Of a DNA stretch of 64,000 nucleotides, positions 12,843 to 56,960 are shown in pieces. Origin of the DNA: Okamejei kenojei (lineage: Eukaryota); assembly GCA_035221665.1 (NCBI GenBank), contig CM069162.1, forward strand, positions 6,076,001 through 6,140,000, read 5' to 3'. Made by a program: the position numbers and the translations under genes. Each line of letters begins with the position of its first letter. The first letter of the stretch is position 1. Under the pieces are notes generated by a model that did not search any database, was not told the DNA's origin, and saw nothing but the letters and a program-made list of their open reading frames with translations.

Positions 12843-13169
12843 GTAGGAAGGAACTGCAGATGCTGTTTTAAACCGAAGATAGTTACAAAACACTGGAGTA
12901 ACTCAGTGGTCAGGCAGCGAACTCAGGAGAGAAGGAATGGGTGACGTTTTGGGTCGAGACCCTTCTTCAGACTGGTTAGGAATAAGGGAAACGAGAGATA
13001 TAGACAATGATGGAGAGAGATAAAGAACAATGAATGAAAGAGATGCAAAAAAGTAATGATGATAAAAGAAACAGGAAGGCAGACAAAAATGCTGCAGAAA
13101 CTCAGCGGGTGAGGCAGCATCTATGGAACAAAGGAATAGGTGACGTTTCACGTCGAGACCCTTCTTCAG
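12843..13169 (-). mobile_element. Penelope-like terminal repeats (two hammerhead-type motifs)
   Basis: aggaaggaactgcagatgctg...gtcgagacccttcttcag, with the motif present twice. Confidence 0.75.
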
Positions 13170-13170
13170 T

Positions 13171-14131
13171 TTTGATGTGGATAGAGAACTGGCTGGCAGA
13201 CAGGAAGCAAAGAGTAGGAGTAAACGGGTCATTTTCAGAATGGCAGGCAGTGACTAGTGGGGTACTGCAAGGCTCAGTGCTGGGACCCCAGCTATTTACA
13301 ACATATATTAATGATCTGGATGAGGGAAGTGGATGCAACATCTCCAAATTTGCGGATGACACGAAGCTGGGGGCAGTGTTAGCTGTGAGGAGGATGCTAG
13401 GAGGCTGCAAGGTGACTTGGATAGGTTGGGTGAGTGGGCAAATGCATGGCAGATGCAGTATAATGTGGATAAATGTGAGGTTATCCACTTTGGTGGCAAA
13501 AACAGGAGGGTAGATTATTATCTGAATGGTGTCCGATTAGGAAAAGGGGAGATGCAACGAGACCTGGGTGTCATGGTACACCAGTCATTGAAAGTAGGCA
13601 TGCAGGTGCAGCAGGCAGTGAAGAAAGCGAATGGTATGTTGGCATTCATAGCAAAAGGATTTGAGTATAGGAGCAGGGAGGTTCTACTGCAGTTGTACAG
13701 GGTCTTGGTGAGGCCACACCTGGAGTATTGCGTACAGTTTTGGTCTCCTAATCTGAGGAAAGACATTCTTGCCATAGAGGGAGTACAGAGAAGGTTCACC
13801 AGATTGATTCCTGGGATGGCAGGACTTCCATATGAAGAAAGACTGGATAGACTCAGCTTGTACTCGCTGGGATTTAGGAGATTGAGGGGGGATCTTATAG
13901 AGGCTTACAAAATTCTTAAGGGGTTGGACAGGCTAGATGCAGGAAGATTGTTCCCGATGTTGGGGAACTCCAGAACAAGGGGTCACAGTTTAAGGATAAG
14001 GGGAAAGTCTTTTAGGATCGAGATGAGAAGATCTTTTTTCACACAGAGAGTGGTGAGTCTGTGGAATTCTCTGCCACAGACGGTAGTTGAGGCCAGTTCA
14101 TTGCCTATATTTAAGAGGGAGCTAGATGTGG
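13171..14131 (+). mobile_element. CR1 (HER1-like) LINE ORF2 RT fragment
   Basis: [13 protein letters not shown]...[11 protein letters not shown]...FADDTKLG, one frameshift near 13375, then [15 protein letters not shown]...TRGHSLRI...FFTQRVV. Confidence 0.95.
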
Positions 14132-23906: not shown

Positions 23907-24976
23907 TCATTGTTCTGTTTCAGGACATGACAAGGAAACACTCCTGAATCAGGGCAATTTGAACCCATTCTCTATGGTCCTCACACAATCATGTTCCTTC
24001 TATCTACCCCTGTCGTCTAGTCCACAGCTGTTCAATCAAGTGTCCAGGAACTATTCCACCAAATCCTCTCTGCGCACTCTTTAGGAACTTCAAACCAAAG
24101 ATCACAGAGCTCTCTGATCTTTGCTTCAAACCCCTCTTAACACATTGTGACCAGAATTTAAAGCAACTTTCAGTTGAGGCCTAGCCATTATTTTATCTGG
24201 GCTCAACGCTGTGGGGCAAGCGGACGGTAGAGTTGCTGCCTCACAGCACCAGAGACCTGAGTTTAATCCTGGCCTTGGATGCTGTCTGTGTGGAGTTTGC
24301 ACATTCTCCCACGTGAGTTTCTTCCCTGTGCAGATAGACACAAAATGCCGGAGTAACTCAGCGGGACAGGCAGCATCTCAGGAGAGAAGGAATGGGTGAC
24401 ATTTCGAGTTGAGAACCTTCTTCATACTCGTTTCGGGGCGAGACCCATCTCCAGACCAAATTTCTTCCGGGTGCTTTGGCTTCCTGCCGCATCCCAAAGA
24501 CTAGCGGGTTTGCAGGTGAATGAGCAATCTGAGAAAGTGGGAATAATATAGAACTAGTGTGAACGATGGTCAGCCTGGACTCAGTGGGCCGAAGGCCATG
24601 TTTCCATGCTGTATCTCAAAAGATAAAACCTAAAATGAAAATGAATAACATCAAGAGAGTCTCATTAATTGTCATATATACTGAAAATAGAACAATGACA
24701 TTCTTACTTGCAGCAGCATAACAGATCTGCAAACTAAATACTCACACATTACACCATAAATAAAAGAAAGTTGAACAGATTAAAAAAAAACTTTATTAGT
24801 GCAAAACAAAAGACCTAAAGTCTGTAATGCAACTGAGACTGCTTCTGTTATTATTAATGGATCCCACTTTCTTACATTCTTTTCAAACCACTCTGTGCAA
24901 ATGAGATTTAGAAAAGAAGATTGAAATGCATTTATGAAATCAAATTGACATTTGCACTAATATTCAGTTGAACGGT

Positions 24977-33874: not shown

Positions 33875-35210
33875 ATAGAAACATAGAAACATAGAAAATA
33901 GGTGCAGAAGGAGGCCATTCGGCCCTTCAAGCCAGCACCGCCATTCATTGTGATCATGGCCCGCTATCAATAACCCGTGCCTGCCTTCTCCCCTTATCCC
34001 TTGACTTCACTAGCCCCTAAAGCTCTATCCAACTCTCTTAAATCCATCCAGTGATTTGGCCTCCACTGCCCTCTGTGGCAGGCAATTCCATAAATTCACA
34101 ACTCTCTGGGTAAAAAAGTTTTTTCTCACCTCAGTCTTAAATGACCTCCCCTTTATTCTAAGGCTGTGGCCCCTGGTTCTGGACTCACCCAACATTACCA
34201 TATAACCATATAACCATATAACAATTACAGCACGGAAACAGGCCCTCTCGGCCCTTCCAGTCCGTGCCGACCATTTGTTTTCCCCTAGTCCATCTACCTG
34301 CACTCAGACCATACCCCTCCATTCCCTTCACGTCCATATACCTATCCACTTTACTCTTAAATGTTAAAATCGATCCTGCCTCCACCACTTCTGCTGGAAG
34401 CTCATTCCACACAGCCACTGAGTAAAGAAGTTCCCCCTCACGTTACCCCGAAACTTCTGTCCCTTAATTCTCATGTCAAATTGGGAACATTTTTCCTGCG
34501 TCAATCTCGTGAAACTACGCTGCACTGCCTCAATCACAAGGATGTCCTTCCCCAAATTAGGAGACCAAAACTGTACACAATACTCCAGATGTGGTCTCAC
34601 CAGAGCCCTATACAACTGCAGAAGAACCTCTTTACTCCTGTACTGAAATCCTCTTGTTATGAAGGCCAACATTCCATTAGCTTTCTTCACTGCCTGCTGT
34701 ACCTGCACGCCAACTTTCAGTGACTGGTGTACAAGGACACCCAGGTCTCGCTGTACCTCCCCCTTACCTAACCTAACCCCATTGAGATAATAATCTGCCC
34801 CCTTGTTTTTGCCACCAAAGTGGATAACCTCACATTTATCTATATTATACTGCATCTGCCTCGCATCTGTCCACTCACTCAACCTGTCCATGTCACCCTG
34901 CAACCTCCTAACATCCTCTTCACAGTTCACACTGCCACCCAGCTTTGTGTCATCCGCAAACTTGCTAGTGTTGCTCCTAATTCCCTCTTCCAAATCATTA
35001 ATATATATGGTAAACAGTTGTGGCCCCAACACCGAGCCTTGCGGCACTCCACTCGCCACTGCCTGTCATTCTGAAAAGGACCCGTTCACTCCTACTCTTT
35101 GCTTCCGGTCTGCCAACCAATTTTCTATCCATGTCAACACCCTACCCCCAATACCACGTGCTCTAATTTTAGTCACCAGTCTCCCGTGCGGGACCTTATC
35201 AAACGCTTTC
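33875..35210 (-). mobile_element. CR1 LINE RT and 3' end, interrupted by a second CR1
   Basis: ORF 34364-35059 with SGVPQGSVLGP...FADDTKLGG...[13 protein letters not shown]; 3' end near-identical to 21468-22056. Confidence 0.93.
34197..34478 (-). mobile_element. Nested CR1 3' end of a different subfamily, (TATATGGT)n tail
   Basis: accatataaccatataaccatata tail; host sequence cccaacatt|gggaacatttt is split around it. Same subfamily at 52585-52696 (+). Confidence 0.8.
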
Positions 35211-48880: not shown

Positions 48881-49881
48881 AGTTTCTATCTGAGTTTTCG
48901 ACATGTTGCCAACACAGATTATATGTCCACATTGTGTGTGAGCTCGGTTTGCTGTTTATAGTCGAACTGGAGCTGGCATTCGACTGCCTCCCCTCATACT
49001 TCCATGTATCTCTGGCAGACCCCCTCAGTTACCCCCGCTCCAAGAAAAAACAATCTACCCCATCCCTCCTCTCCACATGACTGAAATATTCCACCCAGTG
49101 AATCTTCTCTGCAGTCCCTTCAGTGTAATCCTGTCTTTCCTCTAGGATGCCAACCAGTTTAGAGATACAGCGCGGAAACAGGCCTCTTGGTCCTCCAGGT
49201 CCGTGACGACCAGCGATCCCCGCACACTAAGACTATCCTACACACTAGGGCCAATTTACAATTTTCACCAAAGGCAATTAGCCCTTGTAGTGTGGGAGGA
49301 AACTGTGTGGGAGTGTGGGAGGAAACCGTGTGGGAGTGTGGGAGGAAACCGAAGCAACTGGAGAAAACACACGCTGGTCACATTGAGAACGCACTAGCTC
49401 CGTACAGACAAGCACCTGTAGTCAGGATCGAACCGGGTCTGTAAGGCAGCAACTCTGCCGTTGTTCCACTGTGCTGTCCCTTGTCCTGGTGATAACTTTG
49501 GCTAGCCTGTTGAAACACACCAAGGGACACCAGTCTTGAGAATGTCAGGCCAACTAACAGAGCCTAATGCCAGAGTAAGTCTATGCCAATGCAAGATGGG
49601 GCCTACGCCAAGCAGAGCGATATTTCCTCAGTAATCCTACAAAGACTCTCCGTGATATCACGACTTTAGTGGCGCATTACTGACTGCTTGGTTACAACAT
49701 CAATCATTAAACAGTGATCTGTTGAGCACTGTTTAACATCATCGCCACAGCACAAATTAAAGTCTACAAGCCAGTGGCTATTAAACAGTGGATACAAGCA
49801 CCTGCAGATGCTGGTTTACAACAAAAAAACACAAAGTGCTGGAGTAAACAACGGGTCAGGCTGCATCTCAGGAGAGAATGA

Positions 49882-50204
49882 ATAGGTGAATTTCAGGTCA
49901 GCACTCTTCTTTAGACTATGATAGGTGACGTTTCGCTTTGGGACCCTTCTTTAGAATGGAGGATAGGTAACATTTCCGGTTGGGAACTTCTTCAGACTAC
50001 GATGGGTGACATTTCGGATCAGGACCCTTCGTCAGACTGCAACAGGTGATGTTTTGGTTCGGAAACCATCATCAGACTGGGCAGGTGATATTTCAGGTTG
50101 GGAACCTTCTTCAGACTACGATAAAACCACGAGTTTCGGGTCGGGAACCTTCTTCAGACTACGATAAAACCACGAGTTTCGGGTCGGGTCACTTCCTCAG
50201 ACTG
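49882..50204 (-). ncRNA. Tandem array of eight ~40-nt hammerhead-ribozyme-like monomers
   Basis: Units start at 49882, 49921, 49963, 50002, 50042, 50081, 50121 and 50164. Each reads CT(G/A)ANGA-stem-loop-(G)AAA on the minus strand. Confidence 0.75.
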
Positions 50205-52798
50205 GAAAGAAGGCCCTGAAGTAGGACCCTAATCGAAACATCACCTATCCACGCTCTTCAAAGAAGCTGCCTGACCCACTGTTACTTCAGCACCTGAAAC
50301 CCCACCTACCGACCTGGAATGTAGAATGGCAGAACGGGGTCGCGGAGAGAAGCTGCTGGAAAATTAAATTAAATAACGCAAAATGATTCCAGAGCTTAAA
50401 ACAGCATTAGCCATGGAGGTGTGACCTCTTGGGGGATATTGGATAGACGAGCTCACTCACATGTTCTCAATTATAGCTGTCTTCTCACTGGTCATTCTCA
50501 AAAATCGCTGCAAATGGTATTGTTTACCGGTTTTAGAACTCTTGCTCAGACGGGGTCCACGTTCTCCGGCCAGTAACCCATACTTTTCCTCTCTCCCCAA
50601 CCCCATCCTAGTTCCACGACCAGTCTGACTGTCATCCTGATTACATTTTATCTTTGTATGGTTCATTGTCTCCTTCCCCTAGCTAGCAATAGGGAGTGTA
50701 GGGTGTTTGTAGTGACTCTGTGCAGAGTTTGTACGTCCTCCCTGTGACCGTGTGGGCTTTCTCCAAGATCTTCAGTTTCCTCCCACACTCCTAAGACGTC
50801 CAGCTTTGTAGGTAAATTGGTTTGGCAAATGTAAAAATTGTCCCTAGTGTGTGTAGAATAGTGCAGGGATCGCTGGTCGGTGTAGACTCGGTGGGCCGAA
50901 GGGCCTGTTTCCACGCTGTATCTCTAAACTTAACTCAACAATGATCTATTTTACATTTACCTTGATCCGCGTCCTCTTTGATGTCTCATTTTCACGCCTC
51001 GCCCTTCCATGTCTCTGTGTCTCCCTCTCCCCAGACTCTCAGTCAGAAGAAGGGTCTCGACCGAAACGTCACCCATTCCTTCCATCCAGAGATGCTGCCT
51101 GTCCCGCTGAGTTACTCCAGCGTTTTGTGTCTATACTCAGTGTATTTCCCGTGCCTGCGTCTCCCAGTCAGAAGCCTCACAAATGTATTGTTGGCAAAAT
51201 GCTGAATGGCCTTTTTTTACTTTCTGGTGACTGAACATTTCTCTTTGACAGCGGGGGGCTCGGCCTTTATTCTGCTTGCCTTTTGACCAGGGGAGTTCAG
51301 GGGAAAAGAGATCATTAAATAAAAGCACAGACCTGCATCAATTCCGTCGCTCGGGTACGAAGACTAATTAACACCGACGAAAATACATTAAGTCCGATGC
51401 GTTTATCCGCTCTTATATTGAATATGAAAATATCATCAAAAATTGCGACCGTGAGTGACAAGTGCCCTTGTAATCTTGTCCCTCAGAGGTGTCAGCCCGG
51501 CCTAACACTAATCAATCAAAGGGCTGATGGAGATGTAGAACAAGCTCGATACAAATTATTTCCATGTGCGCATTCAGACGGTCTTGGCTAACAAGTGAAA
51601 TTAAAGGTCACACTCCGTGGAGTTGTTGGAGATTAATTTTCCGTCATCGTTCGCAAGATCACAGGAATAATCGTACCGCAGGCAAGGAGCACTTCACTTA
51701 GGCTGAGCTGCCCCCGTTACACTGATGTAGGATGTACTGATGTATCACTCTCAAAATAGTCACCCTCCCCTTCTGCCTCGACTGTCTTTCTGTAACAAGA
51801 GGTGGCTCAGTGGCACAGCTGGTGGAGCTGCTCCCTCACAGCGCCACAGAACTAGGTTCGATCCTGACCTCCTGCGCTGTCTATCTGGAGTTTGCACGTT
51901 CTCCCGGTGACCCCGTGGGGTTCCTCCGAGTGCTCCAGCTTCCTCCCACATCCCAAAGATGTGCGGGCTTGCAGTTTTATTGGCCCTCTGTAAAATTGCC
52001 CTGCTGTGTAGGATAATGGGATTTGAAAGTGGAATAACATAGCACTAGGGTGAACAGGCGATCGAAGGTTGGCGCAGACTTGTGGGCTGAAGGGCCTGTT
52101 TCCATGCTGTATCTCTCTAAACTCTGCGATATTAAACATAAAGGCATCACTCAAAATCAAAATTGCCGCATTGAAAGCACTCTCAGTCCCACTCAATAAA
52201 AGCACATTTTTTAATTGGCTAATCTATTTTCACTAATTTTCTTCCAAGGTTGCTCTAAGTCAAATCTATTTTTCCATTTGACATTTATCTCTCTGCCACT
52301 GATCTGAAGGGTTCCTTTGCAGTTTGTATTGCTGGTTCAACACTCAATAGACAATAGACAATAGACAATAGGTGCAGGAGTAGGCCATTTGGCCCTTCGA
52401 GCCGGCACCGCCATTCAATGTGATCATGGCTGATCATCCCCAATCAGTACACCGTTCCTGCCTTCACCCCATATCCCCTGACTCCGCTATGTTTAAGAGC
52501 TCTATCTAGCTCTCTCTTGAAAGCATCCAGAGAACCTGCCTCCACCGCCCTCTGAGGCAGAGAATTCCACAGACTCTAATGTACAAGTGCAGGTAGATGG
52601 GACTAGGGGAAAACAAATGGTCGGCACGGACTGGAAGGGCCGAGAGGGCCTGTTTCCGTGCTGTAATTGTTATATGGTTATATGGTTATACGGTTACAAG
52701 CTTCATTAGTGAGCCTTGTCTATGATTCCTGGGAGACTGGATTGCTGCATTTTTGGACAAAACCCAGCAGGTTTAGTTCAGTTTTAGAGATATAGTGA

Positions 52799-53972: not shown

Positions 53973-56960
53973 TCAGTCTGTTGAATCTGCCACAGTGTTG
54001 TCACCCAGACACCTTCTCTGCTTCCGTGCTGCCTCCGCAACTCTGGACACCACCTCGGAAATGTCGTCTGGCCCCTCTGGACCCGTAACTCTTGGTGAAT
54101 TTTGGCCGACCTCGTTTTGTGTGTCCCTGGACACGTACCTTTTGACGCTCGATACATTTCTCTTGTAGATAACACCTTCTGGAGACTTGACTGTCACCAT
54201 GCTGCCGCTCCTCGCTACAACATTGTATGGCTGGCGATGGTAAGGAGTGTCTATCTTACCGCCATCATCTCTCCTCACAAGCACATCATCCCCAGGCATT
54301 ATTTCAGAGCGCCGGGCTCCACGTTTCAAGTCGCATATCATTTTGCCGCACCTTTCTGTTCAGCATCACAGTCTCTCAGCTCCTGGTCTTCCATGATCCC
54401 TTGCACTTTTGGTATTTTAGTGCGAATCTTCCTTCCAAACAACGCTTCTGCTGGACTTTTCCCTGTCGTTGAGTGAGTGATCGCCTGATATACAGCTACG
54501 TATACTAACAGTGCCTCCTTCCAGTTTCCCCCTTCGGCATGGGCGATACGTATCCTCTTCTCTATGGACTGGTTTTGGAGCCATTTCAGCATCACCTCGT
54601 GGTGATTAATGCTGTGATTCTCATGTATTCAGCAAAGGTCTCAGAAACAAACTGTGGCCCATTGTCGGAATACAATGTAACCCGTGTCTGGCGAAGATCT
54701 CTGCTAATGCCTGTACAGTTTTTTTCTGCTGTAGTTGACTTCATCACTGCATACTCATAGTACCTACTATAGTAGTCTACCACTACCATAATTGATTCAC
54801 CTGTTGGAAGTGGTCCAAGAAACTCAACAGCTATGTCAACTCTCGGTCCCGTTGGCAACTTTGTACTTCTAATTGGTTCTGGTGGGTTGCTCCCGCTTGT
54901 GATGTGGCATCCGTGACATGTCTTGACAAATTTTTCGGCATCTTTCTCACAACCTGGCCACCACACTTTGTTCCGCAAATTCTGTTTAGTACCAACGATG
55001 CCTAAATGTCCTTCATTTGCTAATGACACGATCCTTGGTCATAGTCTCTGCGGGATCACCAATCTACTACCTCTCAGCACACACTGACCAATTGCACAAA
55101 GTTCATCTTTTATGGGAACACATGCTTTGTACGGGCATTGATCCCATTGCCCACTCTGTATACGCTCTCTGATATCTTTGAGTTCAGGATCATGTTCTGA
55201 TTCCCTTTCATCTTCCTTCGTTGTCATGACTCCTGGCGCTGACTGAATTGTGACGAATCGCACACAGTTCTCTGCTTCCATCTCTAGCGTGGATGTTGCT
55301 CCCAGCTGCTCATCCTTCACCAGTCTCGACAGCGGGTCCGCGATGTTTGCGTTCCCGGCCATGTGGACTTGCACTGTTGGAGTCTCAGCACCCAACGTTC
55401 TATTCTGGCACATGGCTTAGACCTTGTCGAATAGATCACTTCCAGCGGCTTGTGATCTGGAACAAGTCTGAATTCAATGCCGTACAAGTGTGCATGGAAC
55501 CTTTCACAGGCCCACACTAGTCCCAGTGCTTCTTTCTCCGTTTGAGAATACCTTCTCTCCACGCTGGTTAATGATCGACTGGCATATGCTATGATTCTGG
55601 GTCCCTCTGCATGTGTCTGTACCAACACTGCTCCTGACCCGACCGGACTAGCGTCTTCTACGACTTTTGTTGGTGCAGCTGGATCATAATATCCAAGGGT
55701 TTCTGCACTCATTAGACCCTGTTTCAGTGATTTGAATGCCTGTCGCCGTTCACTACCAGACTGGAACGGTACGTCTTTCCTGGTCAACTTTCTCAGCGGA
55801 TCTGCCAGTGTAGCAAAATTTGGAATGAATTTTGCACAATAATTGACCAGTCCTAGAAAACTCCTCGTCTCGGTTGCATTCTGAGCTTCACGTGCATCTG
55901 CAACAGCTTTCACTTTAGCTTTGGCTGGTTCAGCCCTTCACTTTTCCCAGGAAATCCATCTGAGAGATGCTAAACTTGCACTTGTCTTCATTCACAGTGA
56001 GACCTGCTTCATGAAGTTTAGTCAACACTGGCTTCAACCTCCTGTCATGCTCTTCACGACTTGATGCATAGACAATGGTGTCGTCTGATATGTTTGCTAC
56101 TCCAGGTACACCTTGAATCACTCGGTGGATTTCATATTGATAGATCTCGGGAGCAGCGCTGATTCCAAACATCAGTCTTTTGTCCCGGTACAATCCGCAG
56201 TGAGTGACGAATGTTGTCACCTCTCTTGACTCTGGATGTAATTCCAACTGATGATATCCCCACTTGAGATCAATTTTGGAAACACACTTCACTGGTTGAT
56301 AACTCTTGTAGCACCTCACCAACCGTAGGAATTGTATGTCTCTCTGATTATTGCCTCATTGGCTCTCCTCGTGTGAATACACAGTCTAACGTCATCATTG
56401 GGTTTTGGCACAATCACAACTGGGCTCACCCATGGTGTCGAACATTCAACTGGTTCAATAATTCCTGATCAATCAACTCCTTGATTTTAGCCTCTACTTT
56501 TCCACAAAGTCCAAATGGCGTTCTCCGCACCGGTTGAGCTATCGGCTTGACATTTTCATCAATGGCTAACTTCACTTGTCGGCCTTTCAATTTTCCAACC
56601 CCTTGGAATACTGAATGAAATTCCTGCCTCATGTCATCATCTGACATGCACTCCAATGTGAAGCACTCCCAGCTCTGGAGCCGTGTTTCTCCTCAGTAGA
56701 GGTTCTCCCTTCTCCTCTATCACCACGAATTCTGCTTCAGTTTCTCTATCTCCTACTTTAGCTGTGAAACATCCAATGGTCTGCAATGGTTTAGTTGCGG
56801 TGTATGGATATAACCTCCTACTACACCTCCTTGATGTGCACTTGATTCTCTGCTGTTTCCCAAAGTGATCTGTCAATTACGTTGCTGTCGCTACCAGAAT
56901 CTACAATCACTGGCACGGCAACACCTCCGATGGTCACTGCAACTTTCTCGTGATGGCTCT
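53973..56960 (-). pseudogene. pol: Retrotransposon Pol (protease, RT, RNase H, integrase), disrupted
   Basis: PR: VIVDSGSD. RT: KIDLKWGYHQ, RLMFGISAAPEIYQ, ISDD. RH: DASPVG, ERRYSQTEKEAL, DHKPL. IN: HLG...WWPG...CHGC, DNGPQFVS. Split over several frames. Confidence 0.93.

Follow-up and report, generated by a model that had tools for sequence, protein, structure and literature searches.

A tandem hammerhead array in Okamejei kenojei, probably made by repeated copying of the capped 5' end of a Penelope-like element

The array of eight hammerhead-type units described here is, in the reading that we favour with moderate confidence, the 5' end of a Penelope-like element (PLE), repeated eight times, probably through laps of a reverse transcriptase (RT) that re-engaged the same capped RNA. 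Some units would be later DNA duplicates, and most of the hammerheads would be dead. Of the origins named in a preliminary description of this DNA, a reiterated reverse-transcription product is the best supported: by a G attributed to the cap, by unlike junctions within one array, by concordant unit ends, and by target-site duplications that enclose entire arrays. The window is a stretch of 64,000 nucleotides (contig CM069162.1, positions 6,076,001 to 6,140,000).

The array and its surroundings

The eight units lie head to tail on the minus strand at 49878-50203 and measure 43, 43, 39, 40, 40, 41, 40 and 40 nt (units 1 to 8). TRF reports a period of 40, 6.4 copies and a score of 197. The head-to-tail array of eight monomers of about 40 nt announced in the preliminary description is borne out by the unit coordinates and this period, and its account of the motifs also holds: CUGANGA is kept in six of the eight units (N = G, A, A, U, C, A), CUAAAGA is found in units 7 and 8, and GAAA has become AAAA in unit 4.

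Unit 1, the 5'-most (50161..50203), keeps CUGAGGA and GAAA and has a broken helix II. Unit 2 (50118..50160), with a junction ending in G-UAGU, has kept the core, has a U.C mismatch in helix II, and has the 3' strand of helix I replaced. The two units have a foreign 3' part in common, are 9% apart, and have both lost a base after GAAA as well as the helix I strand. Unit 3 (50079..50117) has a full core, an alternative helix II of 5 bp and the palindromic AUAU at 15.1-16.1. Unit 4 (50039..50078; junction ending in G-CAGU) combines a fully paired helix II with the CpG-type change G12A, while unit 5 (49999..50038; junction ending in G-UAGU) has a full core and a 4-bp helix II that includes one G.U. 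Unit 6 (49958..49998) has kept its core, carries C17U and a one-base deletion in helix II, and is 13% from unit 3. Units 7 (49918..49957) and 8 (49878..49917) both carry G5A; helix II is broken in the former, and the latter is the head of a complete short element, whose body and tail (49790..49877, minus strand) continue it without interruption. In the body, 11 of the 86 non-CpG positions are unlike the majority of its 30 closest relatives compared. Apart from the pair 3/6, units 3-8 diverge from each other by 23-53%. Judged by these distances, units 1 and 2 appear to be a later duplicate pair, and units 3 and 6 the result of a later duplication or conversion. The locus is probably an old copy, mostly dead.

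A 12-nt spacer (50204..50215, plus strand), which by eye resembles a clipped extra head of the inverted copy, separates the array from a head-to-head partner of the same element (50216..50292, plus strand). This partner, whose own core carries A9U, is a typical inverted PLE 5' copy, and it is predicted to pair with the element body, which would enclose the array in a hairpin. The preliminary description had placed the array inside an inverted pair of Penelope-like repeats. The partner at 50216-50292 is confirmed, but the stretch at 49797-49881 is the body of unit 8's element and no separate repeat. The description of a micro-array of little more than the ribozyme also has to be given up, because the units are the 5' ~40 nt of a very common PLE end, and unit 8 continues into the body.

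An inverted pair of short repeats, 80-83% complementary, brackets the array at 49156-49372 and 50752-50930; we take it to be an HE1-like SINE. A 23-nt tandem at 49289-49351 lies inside this repeat. Broken LTR-retrotransposon frames with RVT_1, RNase H, integrase zinc-binding and integrase core domains are found at 54595-56355 on the minus strand, and further RT fragments at 13034-13510 (plus strand) and 34367-35065 (minus strand), the former overlapping a hammerhead-type copy at 13142-13169 on the opposite strand. A second array, at about 24398-24457 on the minus strand, has two units at 29-nt spacing, with the break before the cut site and a G before AGU. A search for host genes among 80 of the 159 N-free ORFs of at least 85 aa, which short exons would escape, gave five ORFs with Pfam matches, all to retroelement domains.

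The Penelope-like element behind the unit

The 2.76-Gb genome contains 68,701 exact matches to a 22-nt piece of the unit. Forty evenly spaced 10-kb stretches (400 kb) contained 91 copies of the element, 2 of them in tandem, and the reversed-sequence control none, so the array is not a chance pattern. Scaled from this sample, the copy number is about 630,000 genome-wide.

Upstream of a pyrimidine-rich stretch, long copies contain same-strand frames with RT (YIDD), CxxC and GIY-YIG-like motifs. Two loci (L072 and L076) have at least 1.5 kb of upstream sequence with such RT and GIY-YIG-like frames in common, and show that the motif of the window family sits in the pLTR downstream of the RT-EN ORF. 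Pfam matches to the upstream frames are weak and below cut-off (RVT_1, E 0.05; GIY-YIG, E 0.17), with none at 1e-3; the best Atlas match for the upstream ORF, at 0.98, is to a PF26215 cluster, and a PDB search with the RT fragment gave 0 matches. The 3' ends of the element fall at two positions, about +60-69 and +95-100 past the cut site. On the combined evidence of the RT and GIY-YIG-like frames, the inverted copies, the target-site duplications and the two 3' end positions, the element is classified from its sequence as an endonuclease-bearing PLE. It may be Neptune-like, a CxxC linker having been seen.

In the family consensus, the ACGU palindrome of helix III lies at +27 to +30 from the A of CAGU, where a DPE would be. 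The Penelope DPE is RGACGTGY, and D. virilis Penelope has an internal Inr/DPE promoter (PMC2377424). One 40-nt unit may thus hold a whole core promoter. Separately, several matches join the tail of a young element to the body of an older one (e.g. G000:C1:191307848 and C2:52277312), which suggests that young elements insert into old ones.

Arrays elsewhere in the genome

Similar arrays, which the preliminary description had suggested looking for, recur genome-wide with 2-6 units in a similarity search, the closest of them only 75% identical to the window array. Exact tandem junctions at 21-51 nt spacing number 723 in young copies, with 0 in the control; at 52-82 nt spacing there are 169 pattern matches, many of which are two short units. 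Repetition in the parsed arrays affects the head of the element, and the body follows on from the last unit. Unit length and junction are private to each array locus.

The parsed set consists of 125 arrays, 91 of them of the youngest subfamily, with 138 junctions. It includes the first 100 of the 472 matches of one pattern (one place left out), a second pattern (all but 4 distinct places), and three loci from a loose pattern. The pattern behind the 472 matches is blind to breaks before C17, some of which are found by the pattern behind the 723 junctions. The loose three-anchor patterns gave counts at or near those of the control and were used solely for collecting loci. After 14 junctions with inserts of more than 4 nt (mostly body mutations) had been dropped, 124 junctions at 86 loci remained.

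Tandem duplication in the middle of the element also occurs (430 junctions, roughly half the 5' rate). Exclusive anchoring of the duplications at the 5' end is not supported, as the excess over mid-element duplication is only about twofold (0.39% vs 0.19%; sample counts 27 and 33). Many of the mid-element duplications at L331-L350 occupy the 5' end of a copy that is 5'-truncated, and their joints are blunt or show microhomology; the RT may re-copy the last stretch at any stop, not just at the cap.

Three other tandems were encountered. L229 (G000:C472:6300-8300), on a small contig, repeats a 39-nt hammerhead unit about 20 times or more with a single junction type, and has the look of a minisatellite that grew as DNA. 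At G000:C22, 1.77-3.42 Mb, eight among the matches listed share a 70-nt head-to-tail unit that lacks the CUGA core, and form a satellite-like family confined to this region. L334 holds three tandem whole elements of 139 nt, each with an 11-nt spacer, and is a candidate tandem of retrozyme size.

Anatomy of the junctions

Junction statistics are based on one junction per locus at 86 loci. Unit starts fall into a stretch of about 10 nt and are most frequent at two pyrimidine-purine steps, the A of CAGU (19) and the G of UGAAG (16). The ends lie between +0 and +17 past the cut site, most often at +7 and +3, and the length has a median of 38 nt. No correlation is seen between the positions of start and end (rho -0.10, p 0.38), and a fixed length measured from the cap is not supported. 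Microhomology is seen in 17 of the 86 junctions and an untemplated insert in 57.

At 46 of the 86 young loci, an untemplated G stands right before the unit start. Of the 55 junctions at which the template base is other than G, 46 have G as their last insert base (p 2e-14 against 1/3). Of the starts at AGU, 17 of 19 have this G before them, and of those at GAAG, 14 of 16; since it stands ahead of several different start positions, no single variant template explains it. Twenty mid-element duplications served as a control: 13 could be parsed and 7 could not, and an untemplated G was found in none of the 13 (Fisher p 1.5e-4). We infer that the starts of young units are the 5' ends of capped RNAs, from the untemplated G and from the reading of a 5' G in L1 insertions as a copy of the cap (PMC9341517). 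Capped starts would also fit the internal promoter of D. virilis Penelope (PMC2377424). Among 50 older loci the G mark is present in 46 of 120 junctions, compared with 2 of 24 single copies whose own upstream sequence is retained; in several long old arrays (L002, L003, L007) the junctions show microhomology and no G.

In the window array, four of seven junctions show the +7 break, a G and then (C/U)AGU, which is the modal young junction, and a fifth has an A where CpG decay would put it. The same pair of G-CAGU and G-UAGU is present at L398. Two of the four G junctions are a duplicate pair and not independent, and one helix II change is common to four units of the array; for both reasons some units are taken to be later DNA duplicates. 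A fold-back from antisense upstream sequence was considered as a possible source of the GU linker in the window; it would need two switches, and the pair at L398 also speaks against it.

The ends of the units also bear on the role of cleavage. Only 5 of 86 young units end at the cut site (+0), and 9 at +0 or +1, so the units cannot be regarded as cleavage products, and cleavage does not set the re-entry point in most cases. Twenty of the 86 start downstream of C3-U4 and therefore have no hammerhead core. A hammerhead-cut RNA circle of about 40 nt, a micro-retrozyme that is reverse transcribed by rolling circle and spreads as a family, is for these reasons hardly credible as the source of the array. 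Tandem hammerhead units do define animal retrozymes, for which families down to 51 bp are reported in the available parts of the literature, and arrays with identical junctions exist (L096, L162, L229). Against a circle stand the privacy of unit length and junction to each locus, the junctions that differ between laps, the untemplated G at unit starts, the units without C3-U4, the continuation of arrays into the element body at the 3' end, and the lack of any close relative of the window array. The rolling-circle origin offered in the preliminary description is accordingly not upheld.

Evidence for repeated laps

Twenty-six arrays have at least two clean junctions, and in 19 of them (17 once homopolymers are collapsed) the junctions are unlike. 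The bodies in those arrays differ at 10 of 1400 nt (0.7%), and later mutation would make about 8% of junction pairs differ. Within arrays with unlike junctions the 3' ends are 0.9 nt apart (random pairs, 4.6), and 18 of 19 are consistent in start class (chance 0.64, p 0.003). In 25 of 26 arrays the junction made first, in which the start of the long template is recorded, agrees with the one after it. In 26 of 92 young arrays a target-site duplication lies around the array as a whole; this count is a floor, because the script ignores sequence outside inverted copies. At the window locus, which is old, a target-site duplication was looked for and not found.

The array could alternatively have grown as DNA, a single dimer made by RT or by slippage having been expanded by slippage and unequal crossing-over into a minisatellite, with no RT laps at the window locus. 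The close unit pairs 1/2 and 3/6, as later duplicates, speak for such growth, as do the identical junctions in 7 of the 26 young arrays and L229 with its one junction type and its paired degenerate units; moreover, all window junctions could come from a single G junction. We nevertheless consider DNA expansion unlikely. It fails on the differences limited to junctions in 17-19 of the 26 young arrays, and most unit pairs among units 3-8 differ as if they were about as old as the insertion.

A further possibility is that the RT joins different short capped RNAs, such as paused or prematurely terminated Pol II transcripts, some of them oligoadenylated, by end-to-end jumping. Paused Pol II transcripts are similar in size to units of 26-51 nt. 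Short A tails could account for the inserts A, AG and AAG, two among the listed junctions consist of GAAA and three extra A before G-AGU, and L112 holds two unlike unit types. Some arrays have G-CAGU in one lap and AC-CAGU in the following one, perhaps because two RNAs were involved. This explanation is very unlikely, because both unit ends agree within an array far more than they would if drawn at random from the pool across the genome.

Repeated copying of one RNA, the reading that we favour, could proceed as follows. What is repeated is the head of a short, very abundant element, and long copies of this element have an upstream ORF with RT and GIY-YIG-like motifs. To judge from the unit starts, transcription would begin in a cluster of about 10 nt at the 5' edge of the hammerhead, and the ribozyme would thus form the first ~35 nt of a capped, uncut RNA. 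As suggested by the insertion ends and by PLE biochemistry, the RT would prime at the target nick and start internally at about +65 or +98 past the cut site. It would run to the cap, add a C opposite it, and then engage that RNA again at a point 26-51 nt away from the cap, using either a trimmed 3' end or an internal site. Copying would then repeat, with 0-2 untemplated bases acquired separately in each lap. Candidates for what sets the re-entry point, both of them guesses, are internal re-entry and a trimming of the hybrid of the RNase H type. Unit 8, as the head of the complete element, would be the first unit copied, and a second cDNA from the other DNA end would give the inverted copy. The copies would then decay neutrally, as they do in the family at large and as we assume for the window locus.

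Hammerhead integrity and decay

The hammerhead check proposed earlier gave 0 Rfam matches at the gathering score in the window, and a search of 49500-50600 returned no hammerhead among 5 matches at E<=10; this is unsurprising for minimal hammerheads without helix III. With the CUGANGA, GAAA and UH core elements at fixed positions, the complete core is found in three of eight units and in the family consensus. The family reference has helix II with G10.1-C11.1 and the palindromic 15.2-16.2; helix II is also present in units 4 and 5 and is broken in most units; in the family register, units 1, 2, 3, 6, 7 and 8 have non-pairs or a gap in it. Helix I consists of two pairs and an A.C mismatch in units 3-6 and 8, and of one pair in unit 7.

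Units 4, 7 and 8 are predicted to be dead by core change, from G12A in the first and G5A in the other two. Only units 3 and 5 could still cut, with a helix I of 2 bp, and unit 5 would be the best candidate. The two are not adjacent, folds of single units are not hammerheads, and the array fold is less stable than shuffles (z +1.39). Self-processing into a ladder of ~40-nt RNAs, as the preliminary description imagined, therefore finds no support: just these two units keep the core and plausible helices, and the junctions differ between laps. Three sequencing runs from the same species, of uncertain type, cover only the repeat parts, with paralogous contigs, and leave the unique flanks bare; they are uninformative on expression.

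The pattern of decay in the family is neutral in unbiased samples. Arrays anchored only after the cut site (16 of 21) have 31 core changes vs 29.5 expected, and random single copies 80 vs 86.2. G12 is lost like any CpG (26/109, other CpG 106/535). N7, on whose freedom to vary the preliminary description had built an argument, is changed in 7/109 cases and the core A in 31/436. The G12 and N7 counts come from 37 of 38 loci found without reference to the core, most of them anchored on helix II. N7 hypervariability as a family-wide sign of selection is ruled out by these counts.

The window array itself is short of core changes, and in this respect both the N7 argument and the suggested avoidance of core positions retain some ground. 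It has 3 core changes vs 14.3 expected from its non-core rate (Poisson p 4e-4), or 2 vs 14.6 when distinct alleles are counted (p 8e-4), and N7 is changed in 3/8 units, the core A in 0/40. Arrays found by similarity to the window array also show a deficit (29 vs 46.1 expected, p 0.017), which ascertainment may explain, though perhaps not in full. For the window array a winner's curse is a plausible cause, since it was chosen for its hammerhead looks and its helices are not conserved.

Selection could instead have kept the array as a multi-hammerhead that would cut a host or read-through transcript, with neighbouring units acting as dimers. In favour of such a function one may cite the deficit of core changes, the four bases taken by N7, a compensatory U-A pair in helix II of unit 4, and the helix III palindrome kept in unit 3. 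We regard it as distinctly unlikely. Three units carry core changes of a lethal type, helix II is disrupted in six in the family register, and helix I has 1-2 pairs; the fold is less stable than shuffles, and a hairpin with the inverted copy would tie up the flanks. Constraint is not seen in unbiased arrays, and the p-value is post hoc, the array having been picked for its hammerhead looks. Published PLE hammerheads, so far as the accessible parts of the reports describe them, cut weakly even as dimers or need protein.

Discussion

The preliminary identification of the units as Penelope minimal hammerheads is supported. The minimal type I hammerheads that metazoan PLEs carry in their pLTRs, described by Cervera and De la Pena (2014, PMC4209133), have the core, unpaired 9.1, G10.1-C11.1 pair and palindromic 15.2-16.2 of the present family. 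As here, they have no real helix III and occur mostly as solo copies across the genome, and weak activity is expected of them. The tandems described there are ~3 kb apart or opposite-strand pairs, whereas the units here are ~40 nt apart, and the motif here would mark the RNA 5' end, unlike in the available text of that description. Of the features of an EN+ PLE insertion, the window locus has the inverted copy and the tail; no target-site duplication was found there.

Animal non-LTR retrozymes (Cervera and De la Pena 2020, PMC7229834; Li, Clavereau and Pollet 2026, 10.64898/2026.07.22.740005) are likewise non-coding tandems, derived from PLE pLTRs, with one type I hammerhead per unit; the sample of the latter study included one chondrichthyan genome. 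Their units, according to the accessible parts of both reports, are of 51-972 bp and form families, whereas those here are of 26-51 nt and private to each locus. Retrozymes are thought to spread via cut, circular RNA or to grow by unequal crossover (PMC7229834; 10.64898/2026.07.22.740005), while the cut site does not delimit the present units, which frequently have no core. The window array does not look like a retrozyme, having neither a shared dispersed unit nor consecutive complete ribozymes (helix II of unit 6 has a deletion). If repeated copying is the right reading, short hammerhead arrays tallied as 'retrozymes' can be by-products of insertion, and the transcription start of the element has been mapped without RNA data.

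That tandem hammerhead repeats arise from PLE ends is already known; what is added here is the cap G and the unlike junctions. The formation of PLE tandems and partial tandems was described as an open question (Schostak et al.), template jumps have been proposed for other PLE structures (PMC3846280), and in vitro study of the tandem structures was named as the next task in 2021 (available text of PMC8557442). Searches of openly accessible literature, at the level of titles and abstract openings, turned up no account of cap-marked 5' reiteration in PLEs. The junctions carry a sharp signature, made up of the cap G, a re-entry point 26-51 nt from the cap and the use of one and the same RNA; it is testable, and the test is direct because an in vitro PLE system now exists.

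In that system, the Anolis Poseidon PLE (Frangieh et al. 2024, PMC11167929), the RT has two internal start sites 30-40 nt apart, to which the 3' ends here are comparable. Both target strands are extended, uncut RNA is the main template, and the hammerhead needs protein; that cleavage mostly does not set the re-entry point here agrees with such a template. Reiteration at the cap end is not described in the accessible part of that work. The element here, by contrast, looks Neptune-like. The untemplated 5' G of L1 insertions, read as cap copying (PMC9341517), occurs once per insertion, whereas here the G recurs at internal junctions. Template jumping by the R2 RT also needs untemplated additions; it was observed in vitro and is perhaps not physiological (Pimentel et al. 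2022, PMC8857657, as far as its available text goes).

A further parallel is repeat addition by telomerase and DRT10 (PMC12632851), in which, as proposed here, an RT recopies one short RNA segment. According to the accessible text, these enzymes realign by A-A' homology on a fixed template and with an exact period. Here there is mostly no microhomology, the period varies by locus, the runs are short, and the breaks are spread from +0 to +17. We tentatively raise the possibility that PLE RTs perform a primitive repeat addition in vivo, in which one RNA is held at the cap and its 5' ~40 nt are re-copied at thousands of sites, as a source of PLE partial tandems and a seed of retrozymes and minisatellites, a rare array maybe being kept as a working multi-hammerhead. 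PLE RTs have their closest ancestor in common with TERT (PMC8557442, in the part available), and repeated copying of the capped end, if true, would place reiterative copying in the closest retroelement relatives of telomerase.
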